A stretch of DNA of 64,000 nucleotides from Sphagnum compactum. Taxonomy: Eukaryota. Below are positions 4,000-45,395 of the stretch, piece after piece. The notes below the pieces were generated by a model. It made no database searches. It was not told the DNA's origin and saw only the letters and a program-made list of their open reading frames with translations. A program made the position numbers and the translations under genes. The stretch lies in assembly GCA_965153455.1 (NCBI GenBank), contig OZ234493.1, positions 15,118,213-15,182,212 of the forward strand, read 5' to 3'. Numbering within the stretch: position 1 is the stretch's first letter; every line of letters starts with the position of its first letter.

Positions 4000-5880
4000 T
4001 AATTTCGAAACTGGTGGAGACTAAAGATGGGTCTTCTTAACACTCTAGTTGCAGTTTGGACAGTCCACTTCCAGAGGTGGTTGCGGAGGTGGGAAGCTTG
4101 CATAAGATGTTGTGTTTACCTGAGCACGGATTGATCGCAACTGGGCGGGACTCGATCATGGATGAAGCAGATGGATAGGAAACCACCAAGCTTGGGGCCT
4201 CTTTCAAGACCTCTCTTGGTCACTAAATTGTAGGAAGATTTTTTCCCCCTCTCCAACTCCATTAATGTCAGGTGCATATCTTCTTTATTTGAGAGGTTTA
4301 TTTCCTTCAGAGACTAGATTTATGAAGGCAATTATTATTTAAGAATGTTTCTTGTCCTTATGGTTTACCTGATGAACTGGTTGAGATTCTCAAGGTTAGG
4401 AGGCATTGCAGTGCCACCATCCCAAGTTACACCAGGGTTTAATGGTTTAAAGAAGTGGGACATAGTAAAGTTTGTGCTCTACAAGTCTTGCTGTTGGTTT
4501 AAGTACTTACTCTCTCATATGGGTGAATATGTTGCAGGTTGGGCCTGTCAAGTACATGGAAGTCAGCAATACATGCAAACCTAATTTATGGACTAGCTTA
4601 GCTGATGAGGTTCCTGCATGGATGATGGAAAAGTGAAACCGCATGTCAGTTGGTTGCACCTTACAATGGCTGGACCATTGCCTTTCTCTGTCAACTGTAT
4701 GTCATATTACTTTTCTTTACTCCTTCAGAGCCTTTTATCTTGCATGACTTTGTAACGAACCAACATGAAATTGGTTTCGATCATGACCTATTCTGGGTAT
4801 ATTGAAGCCAATTGATGTGATTCATAGTCTGGGCAGAGCAGGACATCGGGTGTCTGGGTGTTGTGGTTGGAGGAAGCAGTGTTGAGCAGCGAACACATTC
4901 TGCTCAGCAAACGGCAGCTTGCAATGTAGCAGATAATGCCCTACTTGCTTTTTGTCTACCATAATATAAGCAACAAGGGAACAAGCCTGCTTCATTCTTC
5001 CTTTCCAATATTTGCCCAAATATCTAAGCATGGTATATTGCTCCTTGTCATGAACTGTTGTATCACTTTCCAAGCTGTGAAGCCACATTTTGAGTTCTGT
5101 TTCAGTGCATGAACCCTAACTGGCTAATTCTGTGTGGATGAGTTGTCAAATCTTTGAAATCAAGAGAATTTTTTCCTAACGAATCTTCTGATGAGGTTGT
5201 GAGCAACCACTTTGAAATAAACAGTAAGTGACAGAGTATGTGGTTTTGCAGGTATTTCTTTGGGTGGCTTTGGTCTTGGTGAAGCTGCAGAGGATCGAGG
5301 CCCTCTTCTAGAAGTTGTCACTGTAGTTCTCTATCTTTAATGCCAAATCTTTTCAGGTAGTGTGGGTAGCAGTCCCCACCTCTTTGCAGTCCTAGTTTTA
5401 GTTGTTATAGCTGGGGTTCAAAAAAAGTAAATAACTAGTTTTGGATGCGAGAAATATTTTGGGAGGGTCACATATTGAGCATCAGTGGAGCTGCTCTAAA
5501 AACCTGCTCCAAATGGTTTTTCAGTGTACTTGGAGGGGACCCTATTCAGGATAAATATTCATGCTTGCACGAGTGGGCATTTTGGGCATGATTAGGTGAC
5601 TCGTTTTTTATTTTTTGAGAGCTTATTTTTAACACTAGTGAAATTTTTTATATTGTAACAAGTAACAACTTATGCATCTAATGTAAATTTTTCTATGTTT
5701 TTATTGACTCTGCTCTTCAGGGAAGAGACATTGCGATGCATGCAGAAACAGGCGAAAGTTTGGTATCCCCACATTTTAGGGTCATGTGGAGTCCACTATA
5801 GAAAATATTCCAGCATAACTGAAGGATCCACTTCGTGTTCACCATGCTTACCATCATGTGTTTCCAATTTAGTATGTTGA
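4000..5880 (+). pseudogene. Exon-like remnants of an unidentified gene
   Basis: Several GC-richer blocks bounded by AG/GT-like sites (~4395-4463, ~4538-4643, ~4729-4796, ~4828-4924, ~5252-5322, ~5721-5870), with stops. No family recognised. Confidence 0.3.
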
Positions 5881-5966
5881 ATATTCATCATCCTTTTGGA
5901 CGTCATTTAAAGGGCAGAGTCATTATGTGACGAGCCACTTGTTTGAAAGTATGCAAATTTCAAATA

Positions 5967-6239
5967 ATGTGGGAGGGGGGCGTAGGAAGAATAACACAAA
6001 ATCAGGGAGTTGCCAAGAAGAACCTGCTGGCCGGGCTTTTCGCCCACAGAGGAGAGCTACCGCCAGGATCTTTGCCCACAGAGGAGAGTCGTGTGTCTAA
6101 CGCAATCACAAGAGAGAATTGTGCAAGACATGGACTGGGTTCGAGACACGATACTGCTGGGCGAAAAACCGGCCGGCAGGTCCTTCTCAACTCCTTGATT
6201 TTGTTTGATTCCTCCAAGCGCCCCCCTTCTCCCCCACAT
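5967..6239. repeat. Long imperfect inverted repeat (fold-back)
   Basis: Arm ~5967-6047 (atgtgggag...cttttcgccca) is the reverse complement, with mismatches, of ~6158-6239 (tgggcgaaaaacc...cccccacat). Further partial pairing inside. Confidence 0.85.
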
Positions 6240-6899
6240 ACCCGAACGGCGGCTCGTCCTTGAGATGAACCTGAATGAACGTCTGTGGATCATGGGACGT
6301 ATAAAAGGGTTGAGTTGAAACAGGTTGTGATCAAGTCTTCGATCACCTCCCCTTTCAATGGTTCATCTCTCCTGTATGTTTCAGTACTTTCTTGCACTGC
6401 AACTTTCTCTCCATTGATCAAGGCTTCGTTTGTGACTACAGTTCTAATTTAATAGTAGTGATTTGTTTTGTTGCTGGAGCTTCAGTACTACTGATCTGCT
6501 GCAGCTGAAAACTAAAGTCTCCACCCAACTCGCGATCACGTCCCCCGGGTCAACTCATGGCACCAGTGACCAGATCCAGCCATGAGATCCAGCTCACAAG
6601 GGGCCTGTGAGGAAGTCCCACATGGCCACAAGGGGAAAATTGAACTATTTACCATCTGAAGTTTTTTGCAATGAGGGACAAACGACAATTCTAGTTGAGA
6701 TGCAGGAAAAGATGAGTGAAAAACTGAATTTTTGGAAAGATGAGGAAATCAAAAGATGAAATACAAAGGAAAAAACCATGTAATGATATATGGAAATCAT
6801 TCAATTCTCAAATGCATCACTGTATTACAAATACATGCACATTCCAACTAAAGCATGAGAGCAGAATTATGGTCAATAAGTGTTTTTTGTTGGTTTTGT

Positions 6900-8990
6900 A
6901 CTCGCCAGATTTTCAACAAAAATTTGTGCAACATTAGGGTTAACACAATTGATGACATGCTCTGGTGCACAACAATAAGAATTTGCTCCAAAGCAGTCAC
7001 TCCTTGAATCCCTTGAATACTAGAAGGTGCAAATGGTGTTCAGAAGCACAAATACACATCAATAGCACCCAAATCATAAACTGCAGTTGTGCAGAATGCC
7101 CAGAACTTCTTCAAATCCAAAAGAGTCATTGCCAAAGGAATCTCCAAGAATTTGATGCAAAAGTCCATGATTCAAGAAGTCTGGGAAATACTTACTGCAA
7201 GGGGCAGTGACTGCAAACTTGCGAGTATAGTCCAGAGCAGTCTCAGGTTTCTGTTCACTCTTGGGCTGATTTTCTTCTCCAAATGTTCTCTCTCAGCCCA
7301 GTGGTCCTGACCTTGCTGCTTCCTTTTCTTCCCTTCTTCCTCACTTCCTAAAGCCAGTTCCATACTACTACCCACTGTTAGATTCTTAAGCTCCCTCGGT
7401 TCATCATGGAGAGGATGAGGACTCAGTTTACTACTCCTGTAACTCCTGCTCACAGAGAGCTTGGCTGTACCCTTGTTCCCACCTCTTCTGCAATCAGCAT
7501 TTTGCAGCAGGAAGTGGGTCATCCCTTGGTGTGGAATCAGACCTCCTCCGAGATCTTCTTCCAGCAAAAAATATCCCTTCCGATACAACTCAACGCCACA
7601 AATACTTGAAAGCCATTTTGTTTTTCTCAACTTACAACTACTTGCAGGCTAAGGGAAAAAAACAATCATCCTGCATCAACTGCAGTCTTTCAGCAACTTT
7701 ACACCTGAGTGAAAAATCCAATCAGCACCTGCAGCTGCTCCACCACCAGCAACAGTATCATCCAGGTCATGCAAGCTCCAATCTGCTGCATGCTTCTCTT
7801 CAACTCGTCAACATCGCAGTTCATCAATTGCTTCTCTGAATTGAAACCTGCAGCTAAGAATCTGACGGGTGGGTACAACTTCTGTCTGGACTCAGGAAGG
7901 TTTGGAGAATGCAGACACTAATAAAAGCAATTTCACCTGCAAACTTTACAGTCAATTCCTTCAGAGCTGACTGGTCAGAAAAGCAAGGTTTGAATGGCAT
8001 TGACATTGAGGATGCAACTTCCCACCCGTCATTGGTGCCGATTGCAAACTTGTCCGCAAACCCATTGCAATCAATAACAGAACAAGTGAAGGTGGATTTT
8101 TGATTTTGTGATGGTACTTACCCGTGAGTTCAATAGGTATTCTCAGGAGTGAGCCAAGATCATCAGGCATTTCATAAAGTTAGGAAGCGTGTATTAAGCT
8201 GAGGTAACAACAGGTGCTAACATGAGGTACTACCTGCCAGGAGGGATCAAGTACTCCAGTAGGTGCAGGAAGCAAGCTCCCTCTCTCGGATTCTGCACCT
8301 ACATGAATCTGATGAGCCTTTCTCCTGGAGTGCTAATAGTCCCTTGAACTGATGTCCGACAGATTTGTTATCTGCAGACATCCAACAAGAAGATTAACCT
8401 GTGATCAGGTGCCAGTGATTATCAATGTACCCAAGATTTCAGGCACACTGTTCTACAAGGCCTGCAAATGAATCAAATGAGAAGAAAAGAAAAAAGAAAA
8501 ACCCAAAATTACAGAAGCTGCACACGAAGATCCCAGAGACCCAAATTCTTCTTCTTATGCCTTTGAACCCCGTTTGATTGAAATCACAAATAGAATTTGC
8601 CATGAATCAAAGATGCACACAGAAATATAAAACAAAATACAAAAGTCCATGAAAAAGCTTAAGAAGTGGATGATGGAACAATCCCAACTTGTGAGCTATC
8701 TGATAAAGCCAACAGTGCACAGGAGCACCAAGTTGACCTACACAGTCCAGATCAGACATTAGGAGGAGTGCATCAACTTGTGCAATCTCTTCAGAGTCAC
8801 CTGCTTCTAAGTTGGCTGGTCCACAGGAAGAGGTGTTCAGCAGACTAGCCATCTCAGAAGAGTTGAGAGTAGGGGGATGACTCCCATCATGTTCAATATA
8901 TCACCTGCTTTGGACATTGGACCAGCAGGTCTGCCATGAACTAGCTGCTGTATTGGGGCTCCACAAACTGCCCACAGTTGATCTCTGGTC
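6900..8990 (-). pseudogene. Decayed coding-like region inside the transposon, possibly a second (TnpA-like) gene
   Basis: Coding-like composition with minus-strand GT/AG-like boundaries, downstream of the transposase. No recognisable motif. Confidence 0.3.
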
Positions 8991-9165
8991 CAAAGTCCAT
9001 CTCTAGAACAAGCTACTTTAGTTCTGCACGAGTATTCTACTTATCTACATAGTATTACAGTAATCATGTAAATAGAAATTATCAATCCACAACAACAATT
9101 TTAGGCCTAGTTCTTGTCATTAGCTTCTAACTTTTGAAGAAGGTAAAATTGGTTCACCTTCAGAG

Positions 9166-12100
9166 CTAACCATGAGCATTCCTTATGTCTTGCCATATCC
9201 ATTCAGTAGGTTCCCCATTGTGATGATGAGTAACTTGGGCATCATCCAAAATTCTTTCAATAGAATGCCGAGACCTTGTGCTTGTAATCCCAGATGCCCT
9301 GTACCTCTTGAAGGTTCCACGCACCCACCCATAAACTTCCAACATGCCCAAGCACACCGTACCCACAAAGTAATCTTGTTGCATAAATGGCCTTATTGCA
9401 ATGGCTTTCCTCTTGTTTTCTTCTTCCACTTGAAAATCAGTTGTAAATGTTGGTGTAGACACACTCCTCACTACTGCCATGGAGAAGGACCTGTCACTGT
9501 TATTCCTAACTATCACCACATCCCCAACTTCTGGATAAGGAGGGCAGCAGCCAAGCATCCCTAGCTGAAACAAATGGTCATGCGGGGAAACATCTTCTAA
9601 CTCATAAGCTAAAAAAATCCCATTATTCTGCCCTACCAAAGGCATCGGAATGAATTTGTGCATCAGAAGGTGAACTGGTTTGATGTCATTCCCAGGCCAC
9701 TGTTGTGGATGTGGTTGTAAAACAACCATGCCAGTACAGCTGTGTTGGAGAGCCACAGAAGATGATGATGCTGATGTTGTTGTATTGTAATACTTGCCTT
9801 GGGAAAAAACTCTCCTGTCACCGTAGAATTCATGGATGAAAAATTGGGTGATTTTGGCCTTCCATGTCCACATGTGCCCTTCGTATGGCTCATCAGGCTC
9901 AACAATCACTGAATCACCAACACAAAATTCCTTTCCATGCCTCATCCAAAATGAGAATCCTTAAACTAAAGTTTGAAAAAGTTGAGAATTTTCAATGGTC
10001 ATGATCGTGATGGTGCTCCAAAAACATTGCAAGTACGAGATTGTGTCTTCTGAGATTATTGCTTTGATGCTGATCTTCCTACCCACAATTATATCCTTCT
10101 GTAATAAAACTTGCTTACATGAGCATGTTGGCAACCACTGCACCAATTTGGAAACTGCTCGAGCTATTTCCTAAAAAGGCACAACCACCACACATTCTCC
10201 ATGCCACTACTCACAAACTGTCAAATCTTGATCCATCACACGATGGACATCTGTAGGCAATTGAAGATATTTGTGAACCTCTTTCAAAGCTCTTCCACCC
10301 AGGAATAGACCGTCATTATCCAGTTGCATAGCTCTATGGATCTTTGTGAAATCTGCCTAACATAGTAGCCCGTGTAAGTGACCTCACTTGTCTTTTGATT
10401 AGATGAAATCTTCACAACTCTGGAAATTTCCCTTTCAAAAGGGTAACGCCAAAAAATATCGTGGCAACCGTGCCTCTCCACATCATGTACAAGTTCTCTG
10501 TTCCCTGTGTGCCTAGACACAAAGTTACATGGATTATATTCCTGCATTATACTTTTGAAGTGACAGAGCTCATAAAAAAAACACACTCTATGGACTAGTT
10601 TCACAAAATGAAATATCAATAGTCCTACCAAGGCTTTAATTTTCAATTTTGTAATGTAGCTAAGCTATCAATTAGCCATAAGATGACTAAATCGAATCTA
10701 GCTGCGACAGGTGAGAAAGAAAGTTTTTTAAAAAAAATAATTTTAAATTGTTATTTTCTATCTAATTGAAACTTAGTAAAAAAAATTTGCAATCTTTCAA
10801 AAAGACTTATATGAGATTTGGCAACTAGAAAACCTACAAAACATCTGTTTGCCATCATTTTCATAAGAAATGTTGTCACCTTAACACTAGATAGCCCAAA
10901 AAACAAGCCCTAGAGTGAATACTTGCAACATGTTCCAATGGAGACGAGTTGGACCCAACACTTTCCTCCAAGCACACATGCCATGCTGCTAACAATTCCC
11001 AAGCATTTTGCCTGCTTTGAGAAGTCCATCCATAGTTTCAGCTATGCGTGTAAAATAGCCTTCCTACCTTAGTGAGCATTGCACCTATCCCACGCAAAAA
11101 GGAGTCCAAGCCCAAATCTAAATGATCTACGACATGTGGTAAACATCACATAACAAAAATTTGGTACTCTTTGGCCTTATAAAACCCTAAAGATTCTATA
11201 CTCCTAGGCCACCTTGCTTCAAGTGTGGCAAGACTCAACTTCTTCACAGTTTGTAACGCACCATCCAAATCTTTTATCTTCCCATTTCCTTCAGCATTTG
11301 ACCAACATGTAGACATATTTCTTAAAGACACACAATGCTAAAGTGTGCATCACATCATATGTGAGGTCACGAGAAATGTCAAAGTCATACAAGTTGTACA
11401 ACCCCCAAAGTCATGATTGGCTTGAGATGCCCACTTCACGACCAACCTCATCCCTTTCCTTGCTAATTGGAAATTCCTACCACTACTTCAATGCGAATGC
11501 CATGTCCTCTACACATCGCATGGCAAATGATGTATCCTATGTTTTCTATTGTCATGGTATTCCACCAAACCCTTGTTGCCGGATCGAGCACGCCATCTTG
11601 ATGTAACATAGTGACGTCGACACCCAAAATACCCCCCGCTTTTCACTACCCCCACTTTACATTGGGCAGGATGCTCACCAATCCATACCATCACTATGGC
11701 ACGCAAATTAACCAAACCAAAAGGCAAATCATCAATCATGCATTCACTAATTGATTTTATAAGATATGCATATTGGATTGGGAATCTATCTACAAACAAC
11801 CTTTCTGAGTCTGTCATGAGAGGTTTTTTAAATGTTGTCAAAACGTGGGGGTTAGCTTGTTTGATTATTTTTTCTAAACTTGATGGAAAAAACATAATAG
11901 GAATAGGATCTAATGTGTTTGCTTTCCCATAATTCAGTATCCTCAAATCCACTGTCCAACAATTCTTCAAACTTGTTTTTGTAGAAGAAAATCCATCCCA
12001 GTGAAACATCAACCCAAAATTTTGTGGATCACCCTACAAATGCACACAAAGTATATTAGTGCATGACAAGAAACACTAAGTTTGATGGTTTTTGTTTACT

Positions 12101-13449
12101 TTCTATTGGACCCTATCAAATCTCTGACAATTGGTTATTAACTAGTTTATTAGCTCTGGTTCCTGCAACATTTATGGATCTAGATAGGTTTATTTTGTTA
12201 GTAACTAGAGTCTAAATATTTGGACATGTGTTGCAAGTTTACTTTTACTTAAGGAAAAATATGAGGTTGTCAATTATATAATTATCTAGTTATATATACA
12301 ATTGGAAGCCACCAAGCAAAACTATTTTTTTTTAAACCTAAAAAAAACTCTGCTAATAGAAATGTTCTAGAGACTTACTTTCAACATGCGCCTTTGAACA
12401 TTGATAAGAGTTGAACACTATGAGCATGGAAACCTATAATAATTTATATCTGAATCCCAATGTTGAAGTAATTTTTCACACTTTTGAGTTGGAGGAAATG
12501 CTCGAAAAGCATGGGAACATTTGTTGTTGGGACAAATTACAGGGGCCTCCCACTCCCCTTCAAGATTCTAGAATGCCCAATACTCACGAAACTTGCTACC
12601 ATCAAAATGCTCTTCAATAACTTTTAGCAAAACCTTAGGATCTTTTCCCAATCACCTGTCCTTAGTTCTCCATGTCATCAACATCCTCTCACAAATGCTC
12701 TTACTTCTACAGAAGCTTGCTAACAAGGGTCCGATAGGCATGTGATCATAGGTTAATATGTGTTTCTCCATCTGTGAGCAAATCGGGCACCTATGAAAAC
12801 ATCTTAGACAATCCCTTTTAAATTTTTGTCATGAATTAGGCCCACACTCACAACGCACAACCTCAAAGCCTTCGTACAAGTCCTCTACACTAAGGAACAT
12901 CAAATTGGGGTCATGTGGTGCTTGTGTAAACCCAATGCACAATTGCCACCTCTTTGTTGCTACAAGCCCCAACTCTTTATACAAATTATGAAGTTGTTTC
13001 CATGAAGTTGGCAATGAAAACCCCCTAATTAGCTTGTGCTCTAAACCAACTAGTGTCAACAATCTGCCAATTGGCAAGGCACCATAATCAAGTCTCCCAT
13101 CCTCAAGAACATTGGGTTCCTCTTGTAATAACCCAAACAACTGATGTAACATGTAATCTTGAAGGTTGATGGGCATTTGGCTTACATCCCATTTTTTTTG
13201 AAACTCCACAACTTTGTCAGTTAAGGCTTGTCTTAAAGTCACAACCTTAATTGGGCCTATTGGATGTTGGTCACTACATTGACTTGGCTCATTGGATGTT
13301 GATGAAGGTGGGCTAAATTCAAAAAAATTTGTTGATGTATCTTGACCTGGTCCATCCAAAATAACAACCTCTTCTATCAAAATATTTCCAAGTCTTACGA
13401 TTGGATCAACCATTTCTTGCATGTGCTGGTATATTGTCCTCCTGGACAC
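9166..13449 (-). pseudogene. Decayed EnSpm/CACTA-type transposase (TnpD/Tnp2-like) with C-terminal BAH-like segment
   Basis: Ordered motifs FHWDGF (~12000), WIGEHPAQCKVG..GYFGCRRH (~11650), DLTYDVMHTL (~11350), FWRYPFER (~10445), then VGDSVIVEPD..WKAKITQFF (~9900). Broken by stops, frameshifts and probable introns. Confidence 0.8.
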
Positions 13450-15554
13450 CTTGCAAGTCCCCTAGCATGTCAAGTAAGGACATAAAAGTCTTAGTGCAGA
13501 ATTCGATGTAGGTTCATCTTCATCATTGCCTTGATCTGAAGTAGCTTCCTCCCAAGTGCAAGTTCAAAAATCAACAAACATCTTATGTCACTTAAGTTTT
13601 ATCTCTCCTTGATGACTATACTAAACAAGCCATAGTAAACCAGTCAAAAAATATGTCATGTTGCCTCCGTTTCTTTTCATCATCTTGGTGAAGTAGATGT
13701 TTCCACACAAATGGACATTCGAGAGAACTCTCAATCCGTAACAGGGAGCCAGTGGGGTGGAGAAGAATGGAGGCTAGTCAAGGAGGTTACAAATAGAAAA
13801 AGATGACACTGTTGAACACCAAATGCATCCTTGGATAGAGGATGAGCTTGATGTTTAATGGATAGGTGTATGTTGGCATGGACTTAGGAACTAGTTACTT
13901 ATGCTACAAGACCAGTGCCTGTGTTTCTCGAAAAAACAGACTACTAGTGATTTGACAGAGAAATGGAAAGGGGAGTAGCTAAAGATGTTTGGGGGGGGGG
14001 GGGCATTGCTAGATCTATTCACTATCTGCCGTGAAAAATGGACACATAACAAAACAACCCCCTTTATAATGGTGAAGATAGAACCTTAAGGAGTTCCAAG
14101 GAATTGTTTCCAGAGGATTTTCCAATGGTAGGTGCTACCACACTGGTAGTAAATCAAGTTGTGCAAGGCTCATCTCTTGGAAATAAGGATAGCAAATTGG
14201 GTTGGAAGGCATGCAGTCAATAGACTTGGCTTCAAGCAAGTTAGCAGGCCTCAATGTTTTTTTAGCAAATGAACCATAATCATGATCATCAAAAGGCTTT
14301 GAGTCTTCATTTAAAACAAAGTTGCCAGGACTGTCGAATTCCTTCAAATCTTTAGCTGTAGGTGGATAAGAAGGTCCTAGACCATCATTTCTGTTAAGTT
14401 GTTGTTTCATCTCTCATCTACCACATCTCTTGATCAAACTGCCAACATTGTTACAACAATTTCACAAGAATCTTAAGACTATTGCCACTATTCTTTGCCT
14501 TCTGATCCTCAAGCTCCTTCACCTATCCCTAGAGCAAGAGCAGGCCAATTTGGTGAGGGAGTCCTTCCAAGCAAGTCCTTGGTGCCACCTGCACACATTG
14601 GTGACCTGCTTTCTAACACTCTTGAATCATAAATTGCTTTGTTTGTTACCTTTACAAAGGCAACAACAAGGATTGTACAAGGATTGTGAGAATAGTCTCC
14701 CTCCTTTTGTTCATCATGGGACCCCGCCTACACCTCCAAAGAACTTCTCAAAGAGGAACAAAAGGCAAGAGAGGAACTTTGAAAGTAGTAGGGTTGCAGG
14801 GGAGTTGGATTTCATAGGTAGTGAACGATTGTCCCAAATTCTTCCAAATCTTGGTTTGGATCAATCGAAAACCCTAAACCTTAAGCCTTAAACCCAATTT
14901 CTAGTTGCTCTTCATGCATCCCTCTAGTAGTTTGTGGCAGGTCTCAAGTCCAGCCTCACAGGTGGTGGTGGACAACCTACAAGTGTCCCACCTTTGTCTC
15001 CATTTTTTTCCAAAAGGTTGTTTGATTTCTCTACACCTCCTCCAATTGAACCTTCCCCATAATCATCACCATTTCAAAGAGGCCACGTGTGCTGGCAATG
15101 TTGATGGCACTTAAAAACTTGGAATCTGTATCATTTCCACTGACTCCACCTTTGAACAAGTTGCTAGTCCAATCTATTTAGGACATAAACCGAATTCCAC
15201 AATCGGGATTCTCAAAATCAAATCCCAATCTACCATTGGAGAATTGTGTATAACAGGGTGAAAGATGGGTTCACTCACAAGATTCTCCTTACTTTGCAAT
15301 AAACGATGATGATTATTGCAATGTGTCTTGCTACTGAACCTGTGTCGTTTGTTGTTGCTTCTTTCCTTTTCCTTTTCCTAATCCTCCTCTTCCTCTTCTG
15401 TATTATGTTTTCTAGCCATCAACCTCATGAATAATAAAGATGAAACAACACTGACAACATAAAGAAGAAGACAGCGAGCAATCAAGTTTTCTCCCAAAAA
15501 AATAGAAACAAAAGAAAGCTTAGAAATTAGCAAATACAATGCTAGTTCTTTTTT

Positions 15555-15945
15555 ATTATCAAACTAGCTAAATAGGGGACGATTCTCATTTTGTGTTCAA
15601 TCCTACCTCCAAATTGATCTGATCAAAACTTAAAAAGTCAAAAGACCTGGAAAGAACAAGGTTCTGGAAAATATAATGCCGATCTTTTTTCGATTATCAA
15701 ACTAGTTATATAGGTGACAATTCTCATTTTGTGTTCAACCCCTCCCCCCTAACCAATTTGATCGAAATTTAAAAAGTCAAAGAACCTGGAAAGAATCGAG
15801 GTTCGACAAATATAATGCCGATTCTTTTCCAATTATCAAACTAGCTATATAAGTGACAATTTTCATTTTGTGTCAACCCTTGTCCTTAAATTGATTCGAC
15901 CAAAACTTAAAAAGTCAAAGAACTTGGAAAGAATTAGGGTCCAAC
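15555..15945 (+). repeat. Tandem repeat, ~138-bp unit x3, inside the transposon
   Basis: attatcaaactag recurs at 15555, 15693 and 15832, each followed by similar ttctcattttgtg...ttaaaaagtcaaa..cctggaaagaa. Confidence 0.9.
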
Positions 15946-18900
15946 AAAGAATCATGGTTCTTCACATTTTTTAAATACCTAGAACCGATTGGTTATTTGA
16001 TTTTGATTTTTTGAAATACCTACAATTGGTTAGTTCTGTAATTCTAAAATAGTGACGATTCTTGGATTTTCACTTAGCACTGGTTTAAACCAATGATGGT
16101 TGGTTTTATCATTGTGTGACCGGTTCTTAGTTCGATTTTCACATTGAGAACTGACTATTCTCATTTTGGGTGCAAATTAGGCTGAAAACATTGCTACCAC
16201 AAAAGCACCTTGTAGTAAAGCCTTGCAATTAAGTGCAAGGATACCAAAACGCAAGGCTCATTCGGTGAGTTGGAAGAGTTTTTTTTTTTTCCCTTGAAAT
16301 ATTATGGATTTGCAAAAGCCCTTTAATGTTCATGCTAAATTAATTAGATCTCAAGATTCTAGGTTACACCAGAAGGTTAAACTACTTAAAGATTTTGGAC
16401 TTTTTTTAAAACACTCCCTAGTATTGTGTAGATTGTAGCCATTGTGTGTGACAAACAAGATCATTCTGATGATCAGCATCATGAGTGTTAGGATGGGCTC
16501 CAAGGATCAAGTTGTACATGGATATGTGTTCCATCATGAAAAGCTTTGTAAGTTAATTTGGATCTCTAGGGTAGATTTAGATTTCACTTGTTTTTGTTTG
16601 TGTATTGTTGTTTTTCAATATTGTAACTAATAGGTACTTATCAATATATAAAATGTATTGTGATTGTAGGTTGTCAATTGAGGCAAAGTTGAAAAGAAAG
16701 AAGAAAAAATGTGTATTTGAAGAACTTCTAGTGGGAGTGGCCACCACCCCAAACACAATACTCCAAGTAAGAACTATAGATTATATTTTGTTGTTTATGA
16801 CTTGGTTATTCCAATACGTTCCTTCAAGTTTAGGGTTTTGTTGAACATTAGGTTTTTGGTTTATTTGAGGTGTGTGTAGTAATTTGACATGTCTTCTTTT
16901 GAAACTTCTGCTTCCAGGAGTTTGTTTTGAAAACCTTTCAGTAAGTGCCAAGAAGACCATTGCAATGGTCATTATGGATTTGGACAATGTCCATGATGTG
17001 GTATCAAATATATCTAAGTTGGCTGCCACAATTTTTGCTAATTTGTTCAACCACAAAGGAAAAGAAGAAAACAATGGCAATACAAGAATGGAGCATTTGG
17101 ACCGAGTGATAGCATGGGCATTAAAAGAGTTCAAAGTAGGAATAGTTGACTTACCTGTAGTGGAGAAGGATGGAGTCCAAAATTTGTTCCTATAGAATGT
17201 CAAAAAGTTGTGAACAATCGGATAACAGCTTGAGGTATGTCATGGTAGTTGTCATACTGCAACCCTATCAAATGTTCAAAATAGAGCATGCTTCCAATAA
17301 CCATTTTAAGTTTTGGGTGTAATCTTTGACAATGTTATTTCTAGGTTGTCTTCTTGCACATCGTATTGCTTGTCATCAAGGTGAAGGTGTGTGATGCACT
17401 TCTATTGAAGGTAAATTTGTTTCTTTTTGTGGCTTCAATGGGCTTTTAGCTTTTGCTGATTGGGTATACAAGGTTATAATAAAGCTCATTTGAGATGTTT
17501 AGTTCTTATGACTTACAAAAGCTCTACTAATTTTTTTTGTCAAGCACTCAAAAGTCATTCTACACCTTATGTTAGGATGGTACACAGGTCTGAAGTACAA
17601 CAATGAGGCACACAAAAAATCATAAATGTTGTTCATGTTTTTCATTGTGAATTGAACCAGGTGCATCAAATTGGAACAATGATGTCCCTAGAGTATCGAG
17701 GTACTCAAAGCATTGGCTCTGCCTACGAAACTACAATTCTCAATTGCCAATTGCACCCCTTGAGCCTTTTTTAGCTTCAGCTGAGGATGAGATGAAAACA
17801 AGTGAACATGAACGTCCAAAATAACAATGTAATTTTGCAAGCATTTTGTTACTGAAATCCATGGCAGTTGCAAATCCACAGACCCCCATACTTGCCTCTG
17901 ATTTCTCCCCTCTCATTTTATTTTTCTCTTTTCCTTTCTACTTCTTGTTTGCAAGGTCTTGCATGGTTTGGTTTTCAATCGTGTGAATTTCTCTAAAATT
18001 GTGTTGTTCTTGTTGCTGCATTTGTGTGTGTTAATTTGTTGTTTTTGTTGTTGTCGAGTCCAAAATGCTTGTTGTTTAGGAAGGCCAGGCTCTGGTGGTT
18101 TTGGGAATGAGCAAGTGTGTGCTGTTGTTGCTGCTTCATTGGGATGTCGTCCCACATGAATACATCATATCTGACGTATACAGGTCGTCCCACATGAATA
18201 TGAATGCTCTGGGGTTAGTGAGCAGCTATGACAGAAAAAGAAGAAGGGAAAATCATCAATGCTGGTGAGTTACCTTGCACTCTCCGGATGACACGCATGT
18301 TACTTCTTTTTAGATCTCTTGAGAATTGCAAGAGTGTGGATACTGTACTGTTGTATATATTATGTACAGAAAGTGCAGAAGTGTTTCCCAAAGTTCTTTA
18401 CCTGTAACTTGGACACAGTTGGTTCAATTGAAATCAGGATGTGCTAGAGGACATGATATTCACAAACTTGACATGGGGTTTGAGCTATGTACATCTGCAA
18501 CTGGGTGCTAAAATAGTTACAAGGTGCATGTTTGAAGATTCTTGTAAAGACTTTTTAAGTTTCTGAAAGGTGGGTCTGCTGTTGGACATCATTGTGCTTC
18601 CTTTCCTCAATTGTAAGCAATGCTGGTTTTGTAGTTTTCAGGATACTGGTGAACTTTTTTTTTGGGTTTTCTGCATTCTGAAGTTTGTTTGTGTTTGACA
18701 ATATGCAGGCAATGAGCAATATTGTGAGCAAAACATGCAAATCTAAGTGATAGACTATGCTTCAGTTATATAAAGGAGGTCAGACTGTAAATTTCAAAAT
18801 ATTCTGGCCATTTGTTGAAGAAAAAGCCATGGTTTTGACCTTTCTTGCATTACAATTCTGAATCTTGGACAGCCTTACACCAATCAGCCCCTTCTGATTA

Positions 18901-19444
18901 ATTGTGTTCAGATCCAACACAATGTGTAGCATGTAGATCCAGGTTGGGAGAGTTTGAGCACAGGCTTTTGCATGAGTTTGTTGTATAGCTAGCAGGTAGC
19001 TCCAATACTTGTCTGAATGGTTGTGGGTGGCTCCAATAGCTGCTGTTTGGTCTGTCTCCATTGTGTGAAATCGGCCTAAGAACATGGTATAGTAACTGGC
19101 CATGTATTGTTAGGCAGCTGTACTGTTAGTAGCTGTCATTGTGCTGAAGGGACCAACTTGAGCCTTATACACAGATGCCATATGTGCATGACAAATATAT
19201 GATTCCTCACTTTTCTATTGGTTGTACCCATGAATGTTGCAGTGAAAGGCAGCTTGCAGCATGCAGAGCTGGGACAGTCCCTTTGGTGCTAGCTCAGGTA
19301 AGTTCAAGATAGGAACCAAGCCACTGGCGGTTGGGCAAAAATTAAGGATTTGTGGCAAGCCATGGTGACAAGCTAAAGGCCACTGGATGCCCAGCACTCT
19401 TCTAATTTTTTTGTCTTTGAGATTGTGTCTATTTTGGAAGCTAG

Positions 19445-22400
19445 ATTTGAACTCAGCTGAAGAGCTGCACCTTCAATCAAGGCCAAGGGTACCCCTGGCA
19501 CACAGGTTCACACTGAGGGCAATAAATCTAGTCCCACCTTGCCCAACATTGTGACCCCACCCCAACCACAGCCAGCAAAGGTATTGGCTAACTTGTATCA
19601 TGCAGAAGCTAAGGTCATTCATTCACTATCCAGCCCTACCATGGCAAACACTGTGACCCAGGCCGGTCTCTCAGAGGTTTTCCACGTAAGCCACCAATCT
19701 CAATCCAATCAGTTTCAGTATCCCATGCTGTCCAACTCTTTATTTGATGAAAATGGTAACCTTGATCTTCGCACCAAAGATGAAGGTAGCCTAGACTTTC
19801 CAGGCAAGTATCCAGAAAACAGAAACCTGACTAGAAATGCAATGGAAATATGTGAACCTTTGTCCAATAGCTGACAAGAGACTAGGCCATCAACTGTACA
19901 GTTGGAATCCCAGGCCTTGTTCACTGACTTTCCAGAGCCTGTCCCTGTGGACAATGGTCCTGTGTGGCCTGAGACTTTCCCTGCAAGCAAGCTAGCTGAG
20001 CGAGCTACTCATAGAGCCAGTGTGGCCTTGTAATTAGACAAGGAGTGGGTACTGCTTGGAGAGACTCAGATTGTGGCATCCTCCACATGCAAAGGTCCAA
20101 AACTGTAACCAAGGGATCCACTAGAAGTTTCTTTTCCAAAGCAATCTGTGGGCACAGGCAAGGGACCTTTTGAGGTGAGGAAGCCGTGGGGTTGCAGCAA
20201 GGGTACTGCTGAGATTGTGCACTTTTCCTGTGGAGAATGGGGTGAGGTTTGTTGTCTCTCCTACTCCCATAATAACATGCCGTCATGTTGCTGAAACTCA
20301 AGAACATTGATCTTAATTGTTGGTTTCTGTATGAGGACTGTTTTACTTTGATATATATTCAGAATTACATCTGTTGCCAGTAGCTGAATGGGCAACTCCT
20401 TGCAGTTAATATTCACTTCAAAAAAACTTGTGTACAGGTTGGTCGGATACCTGGGGACTGGGCTCATTCTTTACTACCTCTCATTCAGACAGGCAAAGTG
20501 AGAGTGGATGGGAAGTGTCAGTGTGCTCCAGCAACTCTTTCTCTGTTGGAGAACATTGTTGTACTCCTTCGGTAGGCAACCTGTGCTTATTCTTTAGTAC
20601 CTCTCATTTAGGCAGGCAAAGTGAGAGTGGATGGCAAGTGTCAGTATGCTCTAGCAACTCTTTCTCTGTTGGACAGCATTGTTGTACACCTTTGGTAGGC
20701 AACCTGTGCTCTTAACATTTTGCCCACAGGTTGCCTACAACCTTCAGTGTGAACCTGGTGTTTGTCTGCAATGTGCTTCACTAAAAATGTTTCTAATGAT
20801 TGCACTGTGAGGAGAAGTGCTGGGTTGAGTTTCCTTAGTTTTTCTAATGCTCTTCTTGGTTGCAAAGCACATTTGAACCAATCGTTGTTCATTAATTTCA
20901 ATTGTTGGTTGAAAACTCCAATAACAGCTTCAGCAGAAGTACGACCACCCAGCCTCTCCCTGCCATAATTTGTCTTCTGCTTAGGGAGCCTTTCAAGAAG
21001 GTAATTGCCTAGCTGATTTTCTGATAGAAGTTTCAAAATTCTTAAGTTTGACATTAGTCTGGACTTTTGCACAGTCATGATCAGGAAATATAGAGTAGTA
21101 GCCTGCTCTTTTTCTTGGTTATGGTGCTTGTAAGATACTTTGACTTGATCGGCCTCTCATTTGTGGTACAAGTGATTGTGTTTAAAGTTTGTTTCTTGAA
21201 AACACTTCAACTCATTCTGCATTATGCATGACTTCTATTTTGGATATATCTCTACAAACCTCAGTATGATCCTGCTAATGGTACCCAATTTGCTAAGCTT
21301 TTGTCTCATATGGCAGGCAGTATTCACTCCTGAAGATTTATACACCCATAAGCATTCACTTGATCTACAAGTTGGGCAGGTACTTGGAACTGGTTTTCCT
21401 TACCTTTCATGTTGCCCAGTTGGAGACAGACCTTGAAGATATGACTTGAGTAGATTTTCTTTTTGCTTGGCAATAGTTGACAATTCTTCTGACTACCATG
21501 ACAAAGAGTGCTTTGCCATGTGAACCTGCTAATGTTTATAGGGGTCTGGCTCAGAACCTCTGGGTGCTGTACGACCAGCAGAGAAGAGATTGAACCTTGC
21601 ATCAAAAAGAGTACAAGGCAAAGAGAATGAAGAAGAAGGGACAGCAATGTTTGATGAGGATGTGAACAAGTTGGTTGGAACCTCTGAGAGTTGCCAGCTT
21701 CCAATAAGCCACCAAACTATAGCAAACTTTGCATTTACAAAGTATGATTGGGTTAGGAAGGTGGAAAGCATGTCTCTTGGGAGTATTAGTAGTTAGATAT
21801 GCAGTGGCTTGGTGAGTCTCAATATGGCTCTGTCCACAAGAGATGGAACCACCAAATACCCTGCAATGTGAGCTCCAATCATACCAAAAGCAAGCACTGC
21901 ATTGGATGACACAACTGGAAATTGGACTTGCAAGGGAAGATGCTGCTGACACCCTTCATCCATGTTGGGAGGCATATCATCTTGATGAAGGGTATTCATC
22001 ACTCCCTTTTTTGTCATATGGAAGTAGAGCTTGGAAAGGCTTTATCTAGTTGTGTACAGGATGTTTTTTGTTCTCGCATATATTCTCCATCAATTTACAA
22101 TGGAGTTCATTCTTGTACATTTGACTGCAGGTCAGAGCTTGCATTTTATCTCAATGTGTTTTCTGGTGAAGCAACTCTGGATTTCCCAAGTGCTCTACAG
22201 ACAGCATGAGGAGGGGTGAGAATCTCTTTCATCATTTCCTATGTAAACTCATCAGCATGTATTTCTTCCTCTTGCACTTTGTGCAAACAATCAGACACAC
22301 TGCAATGTAAGGGTACCCTTGTTTGTATACATGGCAATTCCTTGTTTAGTGTCTGCCATTGAGAATGTTTCAACACCCTACTTCCTATGCCTGCATGCTT

Positions 22401-23185
22401 TGAGAAGGTAGTTTTCATTGGCAGTGTGTGAGGGGTATCTAGCATTTTCATTCTCAGTTTGGCCTCTTTAAAGTGCCATTAGTGCTTGAATTTCTCTAGA
22501 TAGATTTGGAAGTGAATTTGGGCAACTGTGTCTGTTCTGAATCATGACTTGAGAGAGAGATAGTATGCATGGTTGTGGAGACAGGTGACCTAAATGTTTC
22601 TTTTCTCTTTCAGATTCTTGCAGATGCTATGGGCCTTGGAAAGACTGTGATGACAGTTTCACTCATCCTAGCAAATCCTGGTAGAGGAGGAATGGATCTC
22701 CCTAAGGTTGCCATACCATCTCAAGAAGATCCCAATTCACTAAGTGGTCTTCAATTGTGTCTGCAAGAGGAATCAAGTATTCAATCAACCAATCAGATCA
22801 AGGATTCAAAAAGGTCAGTTAGCAGTGCACAACATGGAGGTGGCACACTCATTGTTTGTCCACGACCCTACTTGGCCAGTGGCAGGTGAGATTTCAGACA
22901 AGCTATCAAAGGCTTTCTTTCACATGCAGACCTGGGGCTTCATGTGGACTTTGATTGTTCATGTAGCTTTGCTGAGCATTGGAGCTTGTTTGCAATGAGG
23001 AGGAAACAGAGGATGGTGTTGCAAACAAGATGGGTTTAATTTGAAGCAGTAGACACTTTTGGGGCTGGAGACAAAGTTTGAGACTCATGACGTGGGAGGA
23101 CTGATGTCTGTCTATGCTTACTATGGACATGATCGCCTTCGAAAAGGCAGTGCTCTCACTGACCATGATATTGTCTTGACCACCT
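19445..23185 (+). pseudogene. RAD5: Captured 5' half of a RAD5-like gene (HIRAN domain plus SNF2 helicase motifs I/Ia), introns retained
   Basis: Exons translate to EWVLLGETQIVASSTCKGPKL*, VGRIPGDWAHSLLPLI, AVFTPEDLY, MEPPNTLQCELQSYQKQALHWM..TLHPCWEAY, FYLNVFSGEATLDFPS, ILADAMGLGKT, GGTLIVCP, ending at DIVLTT. In-frame stops at 20106 and 22207, plus frameshifts. The 5' boundary is approximate. Confidence 0.9.
20462..20710 (+). repeat. 123-bp tandem duplication covering a HIRAN exon 3' end and its donor site
   Basis: gct(c/t)attcttta..cctctcatt..ggcaaagtgagagtgg..ggtaggcaacctgtgct occurs at 20462 and 20585. Confidence 0.9.
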
Positions 23186-23251
23186 AATCACTGAAATCAC
23201 CTAATTGGCGGTATTTGGAAGCTCCACCAAAACAACGGGTGATCAGAAACT

Positions 23252-24335
23252 ATGGGGGTGAAAACGTCGGACTCCTGGGAGAGCTTAGCGCCGGAGGTCC
23301 GGGCGCTGGTGTTGCGTAGAGTGCTCCAGACGAGGAATCGAGAGACAGGAAAAGGGAGGTGCATTGTGGCGGTAGCAGGAGTGTGCAGGAGCTGGCGTCA
23401 GGCGATGCAGTTACAATAGGAGGAGTTACTGCTCGAGGAATAAGAAGCAGCATCGCAACAACAATCACAATCCGCATCCGCTGTGTTGCAGTACTTTACA
23501 GCTTCGTTCATTCGTTTCCCTGCTACGATCCGCAAACAACCGGCTGTCATGGATCGTCCGCTGCTGTGCGTGTTGAAGAAGAAAGGGAGCTCCTTCTTCC
23601 TTTTCCAAAGCTTTCAAAACTTGGAGTATCTTCTCCTCGGAGCTCGTAAGCGTTACCTGCCTTCTTGCTCCTCCTTCGAGCTCAGTACCGATATCTGAAG
23701 CTTGCAAGCTAAGGAAAGAGGAGTTGCTTCTGCTGGTGCTTCTTCTGTGATGATCAAGTCCAACTTCACAAGGTCGGAGTTCGTCATACTAGGCAGCGAT
23801 CACTCGAATCTCCTGCTCTTTCTCCATTGCTGTGCATCAAGTATCGCGAAGAAATCGTGGCTGGCGTACCCCAGCGCAAGCTCAGTTGTGGCTTGTAATG
23901 TCCAGTTTCATCAAGCTCCCACAACATGCGGTGGTCTCCCGCTGCAAGGAGAGGAAGAGTAGCTCCAGCTGCGGCGAGTCGCGCAAGTGCAGCGGCCAAG
24001 AGATCATTCGTCGCATGCAACTGCTTCTTGAAAACTAGACGCCTTTACAGCAGAGTACTCTCAGTCACAACGAAGAAAAAACTAAAGAAGAAGGAAATGG
24101 TGATGGCGTTTTGCATGATGGAAAGCAGCAGCTGGTGCAGGTACTTGAAGCGGAGGAGGAGGCTTTTGCAGAAACGCAGCGGTGGCATGGAAGCTGGCTA
24201 TGGTTCAAGAGCAAGACACTGGAATGGAATCAAGAGCGGGGTTACTGGTGGCTGGATTCCAAGGGATTACAACTTCCAGCTAATCTGAAGCTCAGATTCA
24301 AGTTCCTCGGAGGAGGATGGCGCGAGTCCTGCTGA
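23252..24335 (+). pseudogene. Captured intronless Tubby-like F-box protein (TLP) pseudogene
   Basis: One frame from ATG 23252: SWESLAPEVRALVLRRV..VAVAGVCRSWRQ (F-box), RFPATIRKQP..PLLCVLKK, YLLLGARKR, IKSNFTRSEFVI. After a frameshift, IRRMQLLL and FKSKTLEWNQERGYWWLD. Motifs are collinear with plant TLPs. Stops at 23417, 23441 and 23696. Confidence 0.75.
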
Positions 24336-26534
24336 GCATCCGGATGATCAGAGAATGTTGTCACCTTGCCTAGGTTATTTTTACAGGCTAGGTGTTGAAG
24401 AATTGAATTACACCATATGTACCAATTTTTGATGTAAAATAAATTAGAATTTTTACTGCTATTCATGTGAATGTAGTGTCAATTACAATATTATTTGTTA
24501 GTGAAAATGGGTGGGATATTTTGTGTTATTCCTGCATCATTTACTTGCAAATCAACATCGCAAATGTTTTTATTTTATGATATGTGGAATTACCTTTTTC
24601 TACCCCATCCATATATCAATGGGAAAGGATAGGGGACTGTGCCATTAATCCCTAATGGTCTGCATAAATGAGATGGGAATCTAATGGGGAATTCTTTTTC
24701 TTTTCACCTGTGGGACCTCCCCATAGGGCTCTTGTGGCTACTAATTCCAAGCCAGCAGTTCCATGTTGATGAACCACATGCGGAGGATCCTGGGTTTCCT
24801 CAGTCTCGTGCTCTTAGTGCGACTGGCAACAGAATTGGTGAAACTCCTCCGATATCTTAGGAAGCTTACTCGAGAGTTTCTTGCACGTGGGCGGGAGCCG
24901 ATTGTCATCCCTCCCCATGATGCTCGGTTGCAGGCAGTGGTAGTCGAAGCCAATGCATCATCACGTGTATCATCAAGGATTGTAGAAATCATGGGTAAGT
25001 ACTCGACTAAACACTCGAGATACTATGTTTCTGTGATCGATTACTAGATTTGAGAAATTGTAAAATTCTAGAGATTGGGATTGTACCAAATATGTCGCAT
25101 GCATGATGGCCGCGTCATGGGTGTCCTGCACATGATCACACGGTGTATAGAATCAATTACCCCCCCACCCTTTCAGGCGAACCAACCAAGTGAACCAGAT
25201 CAGGTTCTTGTGCGTCCCCCCTATGCCTGCTGTCATACGAGCACCCAACGCAACCATGATTGTTATTGACACATAATTCGTTTTTCAATCGTACTGCTAC
25301 TGGATTGTCTTAATTTGCAGGAACTACAGAAGGCGGGGATGCATTCCAAGATGAGGAGAATATAAAAGTGGAATAGCTGATGAACTTGAAGGCAATTTGA
25401 AAATCTCTTCGATAGATCCGAGTCAGGCGGCCTGTGTGCTTAGCCGAAGGCAGTACACTGTTGTACAAATATATGAGTTGAACTTGCAGATGGAGTATCG
25501 ACGATCTAGTTTGTTTAATCTTGATCTGTAACTAACTAGCATGCTTCTGATCAGTAATCACGTGCAGGATTAGATTCACAATTCCATTTCGAATTCTGTT
25601 CCAAGTCAGAAACGCTGAAGAATCTACCAAGCTGATCTGATGCCTATTTGCAGCATCCGCTCTCATCTTCAATATTAGAGTTGCTGCCAGGTCTACATAA
25701 TCTCGGGATTGTTTTTTTGGGGGGGGGGGGGGGGGGTGTCGGTCTTTAATAATTTTCATGCTTAATGCGATGCAGGGGAGCGTTGTATCTCAATCACACA
25801 ATCTACTTCGAGCTTGAATACTGAAGCTTCAAAGCGGACAAACACTAGATTTATCTGCCCTTTGGTCCTCTCTACAAAACGCTTTGTTTCTGGGTGCAGT
25901 CCTGAGACGTTCTGCAGTTCCTCAACAAACAACAAAAACCTCTAGGGTTTTTCACAAATCCCTGTATCTTCTGAGAACCTGTTTTGGGCTGCCATGATTC
26001 TTGGGGGCCCCTCAAACTGTGGGTGGAAACCCTAATTCTCCTGGGTGACCAACCAGATGAAACCCAGGTTTGGTCGGTTACTTGACTTTTCCAAATTATC
26101 TCCGGTTTCTGGTTTTATGAAATTTAGAAATCAAAGAGCCTCTGGTTTCCAGAATTTGTGAAAATTTTAAGAATCAAAGAACCTTTGGTTTGGGTTTTTG
26201 GAATTCTTTTGTAATGGAGAAACCTCTAAACCCTAGAAAAAGAACCTGCGGTTCTCAGGGAATAACAGGGAGAGTATCAGAGTTTTGACAGGTTCGTAGA
26301 TTTTTTTGAGAACTGCGGTTATATATCAGATTTGGTTCTTGGTTTTCTGAGAACTGCAGTTATGTATCAGGACCACTTCGTAGATGCTTTTCAGGATTGT
26401 GGGGGGGGGGTTTCTGGCAAAATCCGGTTATTTGGATTTTTGAGAAAATCCATGGTCATATATCCTCACGAACTGCCATGATAACCGGCGGTCATCTGGT
26501 GGCATTTCTTACAACCGACTAACGTTGAGACCCT

Positions 26535-27016: not shown

Positions 27017-28433
27017 TAGCTACCCTGCTCACTTTCCTACCTTCATAAGTATTGCACCAACCTACTGACACAGCTACCCTAATAACTAGTTATCCTACTG
27101 ACCTAGCTATTGTACTAACCACCTACCCTACTAACCTAGCTACTCTATTAATTACATACCCTACTAACTTAACCATTAGGTTTAGGGTTGAAACACAAAT
27201 TAATTAATAAGTTTTTCACAAATGTATAGTAATTAATCTAAAGTAGGCTAAATTTGGGGGGAAAATTTTAGGGTTTACACATATGTGAAGTAATACAATT
27301 GCATTTTATATCTTCTTCAAAAAGAGTGGAAAAATTAGGTTGAAAAGATCACACAAAGATAAAAGACATATCTTCTCTTTTGGTTTATAAAGATTAACGT
27401 ATTTATTTCAGTTAATAAATATTTATAGTTTAAAACCTTTGAATTTTGGTTTTTAATTTTTTTCCTATGTTTTTTCAAAAAAAATTATTTTGCATTATAT
27501 GATTTGTATAGCTTGTATAATTTTTTAGGTTTAGGGCATATATCACCAAGACTTTTTTTTGTTAGGGTTTGGTAAAAGTAAGTACAAGTGCAAGTATTGA
27601 AATTATGCCCCAAAATTCCAGTCGGTAAAAGTAAGTACAGGTGTAGGTATTGCAACGAAACCCCAAAATTCTAGTTGGTAAAGGTAAGTATAAGTTTGGG
27701 TATTTCAAGTTGAAATGAAAAAACAAACCTAAATGTAATACCCACGTTTCAAAAAAACCCATCTAAATGGTTTGGATACCCTTAAGTGAAGACCTAGCCT
27801 TAAACACAATATGCATATACAAAGTCACTTTGAAATAACCCAACCCTAAATGCAATACTTGCACTTTGGGTCACTTCGAAAGGACACATGTAGGGTTTAA
27901 GTTTTCTTTATATGAAGATCTTACCCTAAATGCAATACCTGCATTTAGGGTCACTCCGAAAGTACGCATGTGGGGATTAGGGTTCTTTATATGAAGATCC
28001 CACTCTAAATGCAATACCTGCATTTGGGGTCACTCCGAATAGCTACCCTGCTCACTTTCCTACCCTCATAAATATTGCACCAACCTTGGTACCTTATTTA
28101 TTATCCTTTACTAACACAGCTACCCTAATAACTAGTTATCCTATTGACCTAGCTATTGTACTAACCACCTACCCTACTAACCTAGCTACTCTATTAATTA
28201 CATACCCTACTAACTTAACCATTAGGTTTAGGGTTGAGACACAAATTAATTAATAAGTTTTTCACAAATGTATAGTAATTAATCTAAAGTAGGTTAAATT
28301 TGGGGGGAAAGTTTTAGGGTTTACACATATGTGAAGTAATACAATTGCATTCTATATCTTCTTCAAAAAGAGTGGAAAAAATTAAGTTGGAGAGATCACA
28401 CAAAGGTAAAAGACATATCTTCTCTTTTGGTTT
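27017..28433 (+). repeat. Internal direct repeat (~370-390 bp; 27017-27386 and 28040-28433)
   Basis: tagctaccctgctcactttcc...catatcttctcttttggttt is present twice. Three ~70-80 bp ccctaaatgcaatac..ggtcact repeats lie between the copies. Confidence 0.9.
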
Positions 28434-29329: not shown

Positions 29330-29625
29330 AACCAGCAACTATTATGGGACCTATATGTGGGTATTGCAAGAGATGCCAAAAAAGCCAGCGGCTATTTTGG
29401 AGACTATATGCAGGTATTGCAACGAATGAAGAATGTCAACGATTATTTGTGCCCTATATGCGAGTATTGCAAGGAATGCAAAATGCCAGCGGTTATTATG
29501 GGACTCATATGCGGGTATTGCAAGGAATGTAAAAAGTCAGCGCCTATTATGGGACTTATATGCGAGTATTACAATTAATGCGAAATGCCTGTGGCTATTT
29601 TTGGACTTATATGAAAGTATTGCAT
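29330..29625 (+). repeat. Degenerate ~50-bp minisatellite
   Basis: Recurring cagcgg(c/t)tattatgggac..atatgc(g)ggtattgcaa units. Confidence 0.85.
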
Positions 29626-45241: not shown

Positions 45242-45395
45242 TCTGCTCAAACTTCTTCTTCATCTTCGAGGCTTCTTTCGTGGCTACAACGACGTCTATA
45301 CCCGTGAGCTTTGTTTGCTGTTGCTGGACAAGCTGCAGGAGGAGGGAGGAGCTGCAGCACTCTGTCGATCATCTGCTGCTGCTCACAAATTGATT

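Follow-up and report, generated by a model that had tools for sequence, protein, structure and literature searches.

In the bryophyte Sphagnum compactum, a stretch of 64,000 nucleotides (contig OZ234493.1, positions 15,118,213 to 15,182,212; called the window below) contains, from position 6595 to 24736, a segment with short inverted repeats at its ends and traces of a transposase and of two host genes inside. This arrangement raises the question whether the segment is one mobile element and, if so, to which class it belongs and whether the host genes travel with it. A first-pass annotation of the letters alone had proposed a giant CACTA-like transposon with a cargo of genes. We conclude, with a probability of roughly 85%, that the segment belongs to a multi-copy family of class II transposons distantly related to CACTA/En-Spm and is present here as a fixed and inactive copy, and that the capture of RAD5 and Tubby-like sequence is ancestral within this family.

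Boundaries of the insertion and recurrence of its ends

The segment is a single insertion of 18,142 bp. The 80 bases to its left (6515-6594) and about 200 bases to its right (24737-24938) are 85-87% identical to two paralogs in the window, and in both of them the site is uninterrupted, with the sequence GAGCTCCAGCT/GCTAAATC at ~1917-1935 and GAGCTCCAGCT/GCTGATTC at ~45465-45483. Joined to each other, the two flanks are 3 bases longer than either paralog, exactly as predicted by a 3-bp target duplication, and the triplet GCT is indeed present on both sides of the element (left junction ...CCATGAGATCCAGCT/CACAAGGGGCCTGTGAGGAAGTCCCACA, right junction TGTGGGACCTCCCCATAGGGCTCTTGTG/GCTACTAATTCC). 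The ends form a terminal inverted repeat (TIR) of 28 bp with 23 identical positions, reading CACAAGGGGCCTGTGAGGAAGTCCCACA at the left and, as the reverse complement, CACAAGAGCCCTATGGGGAGGTCCCACA at the right. With up to 3 mismatches allowed, either 28-mer has a single occurrence in the window, and the expectation from 100 shuffles is 0. The imperfect repeats starting with CACAAG, the exact GCT duplication and the insertion point marked by two uninterrupted paralogs had all been proposed in the first-pass annotation and were found at the positions of these boundaries.

To see if the ends recur elsewhere, metagenome contigs were scanned with a degenerate pattern of both ends, with N at the five mismatch positions. 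The pattern matched 32 contigs, and in 32/32 CACAAG is the exact point where similarity to the window sets in, the sequence upstream being unrelated; including the two ends in the window, 34/34 ends start with CACAAG. Grouping of the flanks by BLAST revealed 11 left-end and 9 right-end sites, that is 20 distinct flanks or 18 besides the window's own junctions, and left-type and right-type ends each retain their own subterminal sequence. The idea of a single mobile element therefore rests on genuine termini that are repeated at many other places. Two of the contigs, L024 and L026, cover the left and the right junction of this very insertion in a related genome, with 94% and 95.5% identity over flank and element, and the insertion must therefore be older than the split of the two genomes. 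Another site is also present in two versions that are about 95% alike (L001/L004/L008 and L030/L031). Among the 8 right ends located away from the window's own site, 5 have a counterpart among the left ends with an identical flanking 3-mer (P ~0.008 versus random 3-mers), a pairing which assumes that those left and right ends belong together.

The similarity extends from the ends into the interior, with a divergence between family copies of about 4-9%. At a different flank, L012 matches window positions 22475-24739 with 92% identity; L006/L015/L017/L028 match 23587-24737, and L014/L016 match 6594-8981. In L016 the part corresponding to 8981-19905 is replaced by ~8.9 kb of other sequence, which includes repeats also present at 27-30 kb of the window and contains no informative open reading frames (ORFs); it is followed by a match to 19905-21222. 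Deletion derivatives were seen directly as well: position 6917 is joined to 18810-19039 (L010, L018), 7062 to 21114 (L021) and 6961 to 23200 (L003/L025). L010 and L018/L032 share one rearranged interior but differ in their flanks, which shows that a derivative was mobile. In the L010/L018 derivative the segment matching 18780-19085 is inverted relative to the left end and contains a 19-bp indel. L001, L004, L008, L030 and L031 belong to a related, more distant subfamily with a near-identical left end (CACAAGGGACC...). The interior of this type is similar to the window over ~160 bp only (82%), and its 9.7 kb contain no ORF of at least 120 amino acids (aa).

Additionally, contigs of four coded runs (X1, X9, X14 and X18) were placed on window positions 5700-25699; these are contigs only, and their depth does not equal copy number. 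X1 includes contigs identical to the window, which may derive from this run. In X14 and X18 one contig each joins 6591 to 24737 with 18,145 bases skipped and 3 ambiguous letters, which is the form of an empty site, and no such joint was present in the contigs of X1 and X9. We treat the joint as a lead and do not count it as shown, as the shorter sides comprise 23 and 30 letters and a joint of this form would also result from a paralog such as that at 1917 or 45465. A third contig of X18, in which 6585 is connected to 24737 via 10 other letters, is probably derived from a paralog.

The target sequence itself is repeated in the window. Positions 1-2991 and 43607-46436 are ~3-kb segments, 93-94% identical and 43.6 kb apart, and the target of the transposon (6515-6594 plus 24737-24938, ~280 bp) is a third paralog of both with 85-87% identity. 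The paralogous sequence at 1-3000 matches no Pfam family in any frame.

Captured RAD5 and Tubby-like fragments

The whole element was analyzed by six-frame Pfam scans, and single ORFs were rescanned for comparison with the cut-offs. The only domains above cut-off are HIRAN (29.3 bits, 20384-20572) and the first 63 positions of SNF2-rel_dom (28.4 bits, 22548-22886), both on the plus strand and both above the curated Pfam cut-offs; the minus strand of the cargo half gave no Pfam match. The corresponding protein P0207, named in its source as a DNA/RNA helicase of Sphagnum jensenii, has 1027 aa, contains HIRAN, SNF2, RING and helicase-C domains and shows 87% identity to the SNF2-exon query. Using tblastn, its residues 60-561 were recovered as nine exon-like pieces, seven with 80-93% identity and two with 52% and 67%. 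A Tubby-like stretch in a single frame begins fourteen bases downstream of the RAD5 fragment. It is invisible to Pfam in the ORFs of the window, but its read-through translation with X at the stops matches the Tub-domain proteins P0190 and P0191 (PF01167) with E 4e-51 and 56% identity. Both captured genes are pseudogene fragments and not whole genes.

This cargo of ~4.8 kb, composed of ~3.8 kb RAD5 and ~1 kb Tubby-like sequence, occupies the long leader that separates the right end from the start of the transposase gene, on the strand opposite to the transposase and hence antisense to it. The same cargo adjoins the right end at other insertion sites: the Tubby-like segment is also present in L006/L015/L017/L028, L011, L023 and L025, and RAD5 exons were found in L016 and L012. 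As copies at other sites share it, the cargo was captured before the family spread, and as the stops in the Tubby-like segment are common to these copies, that segment was already broken at this time. Counts of synonymous and non-synonymous differences between copies in the Tubby-like segment gave small numbers only. The view that the family transports gene segments of several kb is supported by these findings, and, in a test set beforehand, the RAD5/Tubby segment was found with the ends and not without them. The first-pass annotation was also right in naming RAD5 and an F-box-Tubby gene as cargo, except that they are fragments and were broken before amplification.

The cargo has its nearest named relatives in Sphagnum. 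P0209, P0210 and P0211 (414-478 aa, named in their sources, from three Sphagnum species) are chimeric gene models placed on copies of this transposon, which combine RAD5 exons with a different reading frame of the Tubby-like segment (window 23320-23646). Published annotations of Sphagnum that contain such "genes" should mark them as derived from a transposon.

The one-sided position of the cargo bears on the history of the 18-kb unit. It could be a composite, in which a transposase-bearing element and a neighbouring, cargo-bearing Pack-type element of the same family lost their inner ends, became fused and were afterwards mobile as a single unit. We regard this as doubtful, but it is the alternative that survives best: the cargo lies at one end only and on the strand opposite to the transposase, L016 combines the left 2.4 kb with the RAD5 region without a transposase, and passages of PMC8903248 and PMC13317346 propose a model of tandem insertion and aberrant excision for Pack-CACTA elements of Arabidopsis. 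On the opposite side, neither end recurs within the element, be it at up to 3 mismatches or by relaxed BLAST. Moreover, a composite origin would be a possible history of the same element rather than a different identity.

It is very unlikely, in our estimation, that the captured segment is active to the benefit of the element, for example through antisense or small RNAs directed at the host RAD5 or through truncated HIRAN-SNF2 proteins. If it were, repair of excision breaks or silencing could be altered to the advantage of the element. An analogous case is a rice CACTA element that targets OsDRM2 via a microRNA, as described in a passage of PMC12973397.

The transposase pseudogene and class membership

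On the minus strand, opposite to that of the cargo, the element contains a near full-length transposase gene. In tblastn searches, residues 2-1001 (of 1043) of P0049 align with 13341-9502 and residues 1-473 of P0014 with 10586-9169, leaving intron-like gaps at 12355-12033 and 10924-10586. The first-pass annotation had noted a transposase remnant with DGF, DxMH and WxYPFER motifs, and all three could be located: HWDGF at 12003-11989, YDVMH within 11362-11339 and FWRYPFERE at 10454-10428. At the second putative catalytic Asp, relatives read GDHPA and the window copy GEHPA. Other copies retain uninterrupted ORFs, P0004 with 416 aa and P0014 with 473 aa, in a cluster of 127 members. Stops and frame changes in the window were counted against these ORFs (Table 1), and the window copy is dead, its transposase gene being broken by both.

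To assign the protein to a family, a profile made from six close relatives was searched against 1.84 billion proteins, which yielded 596 proteins at E<=1e-3, of which 235 reach E<=1e-10. Of the 150 matches listed, 62 have at least 300 aa, and a Transposase_21 match at E<=1e-3 is present in 20 of these 62. Matches to other transposase families are absent from these 62 listed relatives; what remains are single matches to NB-ARC, gag_pre-integrs, AAA, NACHT and 5-FTHF_cyc-lig. When 10 long relatives were compared with Transposase_21, P0094 scored above the curated cut-off (35.6 versus 28.6 bits), 6 scored below it and 3 gave no match. An Atlas search provided leads only, namely clusters of Basidiomycota and a lead (score 0.88) with DUF4218 on 20% of the members of one cluster. 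The transposase is likely a divergent branch of the Transposase_21 (CACTA/En-Spm) family, and the CACTA/CMC affinity proposed at first is in this sense supported, through relatives and as a distant one.

Other features agree with this placement. Inverted repeats are present at both ends together with a 3-bp duplication, and like maize En/Spm the element combines TIRs and a 3-bp duplication with a large multi-exon transposase, in this case one likely homologous to Transposase_21, internal-deletion derivatives, a length of more than 8 kb and a CAC start. By homology, the family would move by a DDE transposase distantly related to that of CACTA/En-Spm (Transposase_21, CMC superfamily), and this enzyme would recognise the inverted ends of ~28 bp beginning with CACAAG and make a 3-bp staggered cut. 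Before amplification, an ancestor would have acquired the ~4.8 kb of host sequence, placed between the transposase gene and the right end, as a genomic RAD5 fragment (exons for aa 60-561 with their introns) joined to a nearly complete, intronless Tubby-like gene, and this cargo would already have been a pseudogene when it was copied around. The manner of capture and the past or present existence of intact autonomous copies are what we infer beyond this.

Several results have to be set on the opposite side of the balance. The window's own transposase pieces gave no Pfam match even at E<=1, 42 of the 62 relatives of at least 300 aa among the matches listed lack a Transposase_21 match, and the link to this family is transitive, for the most part through matches under the threshold. 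Pfam found no DUF4218 in P0014 and P0015 at E<=1 or in the 10 long relatives at E<=0.01, despite the FWRYPFERE motif. Canonical CACTA ends are CACTA or CACTG; a start of this kind is not present, as all 34 ends read CACAAG and have CAC alone in common with it. No 9- or 10-mer occurs at least three times in the terminal 600 bp of both ends, and no TnpA-like second gene was identified in the element; this gene and subterminal repeats are typical of CACTA but not strictly defining. In its CACAAG ends, in the lack of subterminal arrays and of a TnpA-like gene, and in a transposase that has diverged beyond Pfam in the window copy, the element is unlike CACTA/En-Spm. With respect to the family, the metagenome contigs always break inside the element, so a second copy with both ends was not obtained and the duplication is seen directly only in the window. 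Given the replacement in L016, the part at 13.5-19.4 kb may not all be ancestral. Finally, as an inverted repeat alone the TIR pair is the second longest among 440 inverted pairs in the region, and it becomes significant because it is located exactly where the paralog alignment breaks.

A different superfamily would be one way to read these deviations. A 3-bp duplication is also typical of PIF/Harbinger, and the element could be of this or another type with 3-bp duplications and harbor the transposase-like ORFs as a nested passenger, which would suit ends other than CACTA and window ORFs without a Pfam match. We consider this highly improbable, because the six-frame Pfam scans of the whole element revealed no other transposase domain and neither these scans nor the 62 listed relatives contain a transposase of the DDE_Tnp_4 type; Transposase_21 is the sole transposase family among the relatives of the ORFs (20/62 listed), and in the orthologous copy L024 the transposase C-terminus again follows the same left end. 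That the ends are unrelated sequences resembling inverted repeats by chance in ordinary host DNA with RAD5 and Tubby-like pseudogenes, as the rank of the 28-nt pair (82%, second of 440) and another pair of 30 nt at 80% might suggest, is refuted by the position of the pair at the paralog alignment break and by the recurrence of both ends, each with its own subterminal sequence, at 18 other flanks and of the cargo beside the right end elsewhere.

Comparison with known elements and remaining features of the window

The CACTA-like copy with its captured gene fragments is ordinary in kind; it represents a known phenomenon and not a new kind of element. In Chenopodium, complete transposase-bearing CACTA elements reach 16.5 kb and contain gene fragments upstream of ORF1 and tandem arrays, according to the relevant passages of PMC8978399. 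The window element has the same layout of 5' fragments and internal tandem arrays, and the first impression of a giant element with an unusual combination of size, transposase and cargo was in this light overstated. It differs from the Chenopodium elements in its bryophyte host and its end motif, and also in the length of the fragments, which are short in these passages (80 bp of AP2, two Neprosin pieces) in comparison with ~4.8 kb here.

Pack-CACTA or Pack-TYPE elements of Arabidopsis, rice and maize, as portrayed in parts of PMC8903248, PMC13317346 and PMC6379663, provide a second comparison, and merging of DNA from several loci is described for them in the first two of these sources. The ends of the Arabidopsis elements are given as CACTACAA in PMC8903248, the main text of which makes no mention of moss, Physcomitrium or bryophyte. 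Host gene fragments amplified with the element, a feature of the Pack-TYPE class, are present here (RAD5 aa 60-561, Tubby-like aa 46-401). Pack-TYPE elements are defined as non-autonomous, without a transposase between the ends. This definition applies to derivatives of the L016 kind, from which the transposase is missing, but not to the window copy, where a dead transposase gene of nearly full length is retained.

In Sphagnum, the CACTA superfamily is the most abundant class of classified repeats with 6.8% of the genome (PMC9946827), and families like that of the window element are probably already counted there. The passage on this annotation gives no family-level anatomy in the form of ends, transposase and cargo, and a family-level description of CACTA elements in mosses was not found in the literature searched, where repeat libraries in supplements may list families. 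In a survey across plants, PMC12973397, Pfam at E<1e-5 served as the screen for six-frame translations. With a transposase too divergent for Pfam, and ends missed by searches keyed to CACTA termini, such moss families are likely under-classified. Gene capture by CACTA elements is well known, and the finding extends this biology to another lineage without changing it. Noteworthy are the CACAAG ends, the divergence of the transposase beyond Pfam and the unusually long cargo. What the locus offers is a worked anatomy of a bryophyte CACTA-like family with exact ends, duplication, transposase structure, deletion derivatives and a dated gene capture.

Table 1. Features of the insertion, in window coordinates.
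Feature	Position	Strand	Basis or remark
Left target-site duplication copy, GCT	6592..6594		Paralogs at 1917 and 45465 shorter by 3 bases than the joined flanks
Left terminal inverted repeat, CACAAG start	6595..6622	+	Same left-type end in 18/32 metagenome loci, 11 distinct flanks
Left internal region, downstream of transposase gene	6623..9168		94% shared with L014/L016, L002, L003 at other sites
Transposase pseudogene, near full-length, with introns	9169..13461	-	tblastn of relatives; at least 12 in-frame stops, at least 3 frameshifts
Tandem array, 139 bp x 2.9	15531..15934		Within the element
RAD5-type gene, 5' half (HIRAN and SNF2 start), introns kept, with stops	19461..23229	+	tblastn with P0207 aa 60-561
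123-bp tandem duplication x 2.1 in HIRAN exon region	20458..20711		Specific to window copy; single unit in L016
Tubby-like (F-box and Tub domain) pseudogene, intronless, stops and frame changes	23252..24266	+	tblastn with P0190 aa 46-401 of 412
Right terminal inverted repeat	24709..24736	-	Right-type end in 14/32 metagenome loci, 9 distinct flanks
Right target-site duplication copy, GCT	24737..24739		Boundary sequence and paralog alignment

The remaining interior is less informative. Between copies, the left internal region revealed neither purifying selection, as judged from synonymous and non-synonymous counts, nor a second conserved ORF. The sole Pfam match in this region, a weak one to zf-RING_5 at 7390-7836 (E 0.0046, below cut-off), was taken as chance; the RING region of the Sphagnum RAD5 protein does not match there. 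The tandem array that had been reported inside the element was found again, together with the shorter duplication in the HIRAN exon region. Two segments of the window copy, 155 bp at 12076-12230 within a putative transposase intron and 81 bp at 7790-7870, are missing from L016 or from contigs of other runs. The contigs of X9 and X14 skip 551 bases (17231-17781) with boundaries that can be read as GT..AG and a 5-base microhomology. The skip reflects either splicing of a transcript, the DNA label of the runs being a guess, or a microhomology deletion in other copies.

Outside the element, a cluster of tandem arrays with units of 33, 53, 79, 51/102 and 37/101 bp occupies 27061-31311 and includes a 325-bp direct repeat (27063-27386 versus 28109-28433, 97%). 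As parts of it are also present in the L016 copy, the cluster is probably another repeat family. Interstitial telomere-like runs, both short, are located at 30284-30316, with the plant-type unit (TTTAGGG)n, and at 63900-63931, with the 6-base unit AACCCT x 5.3.

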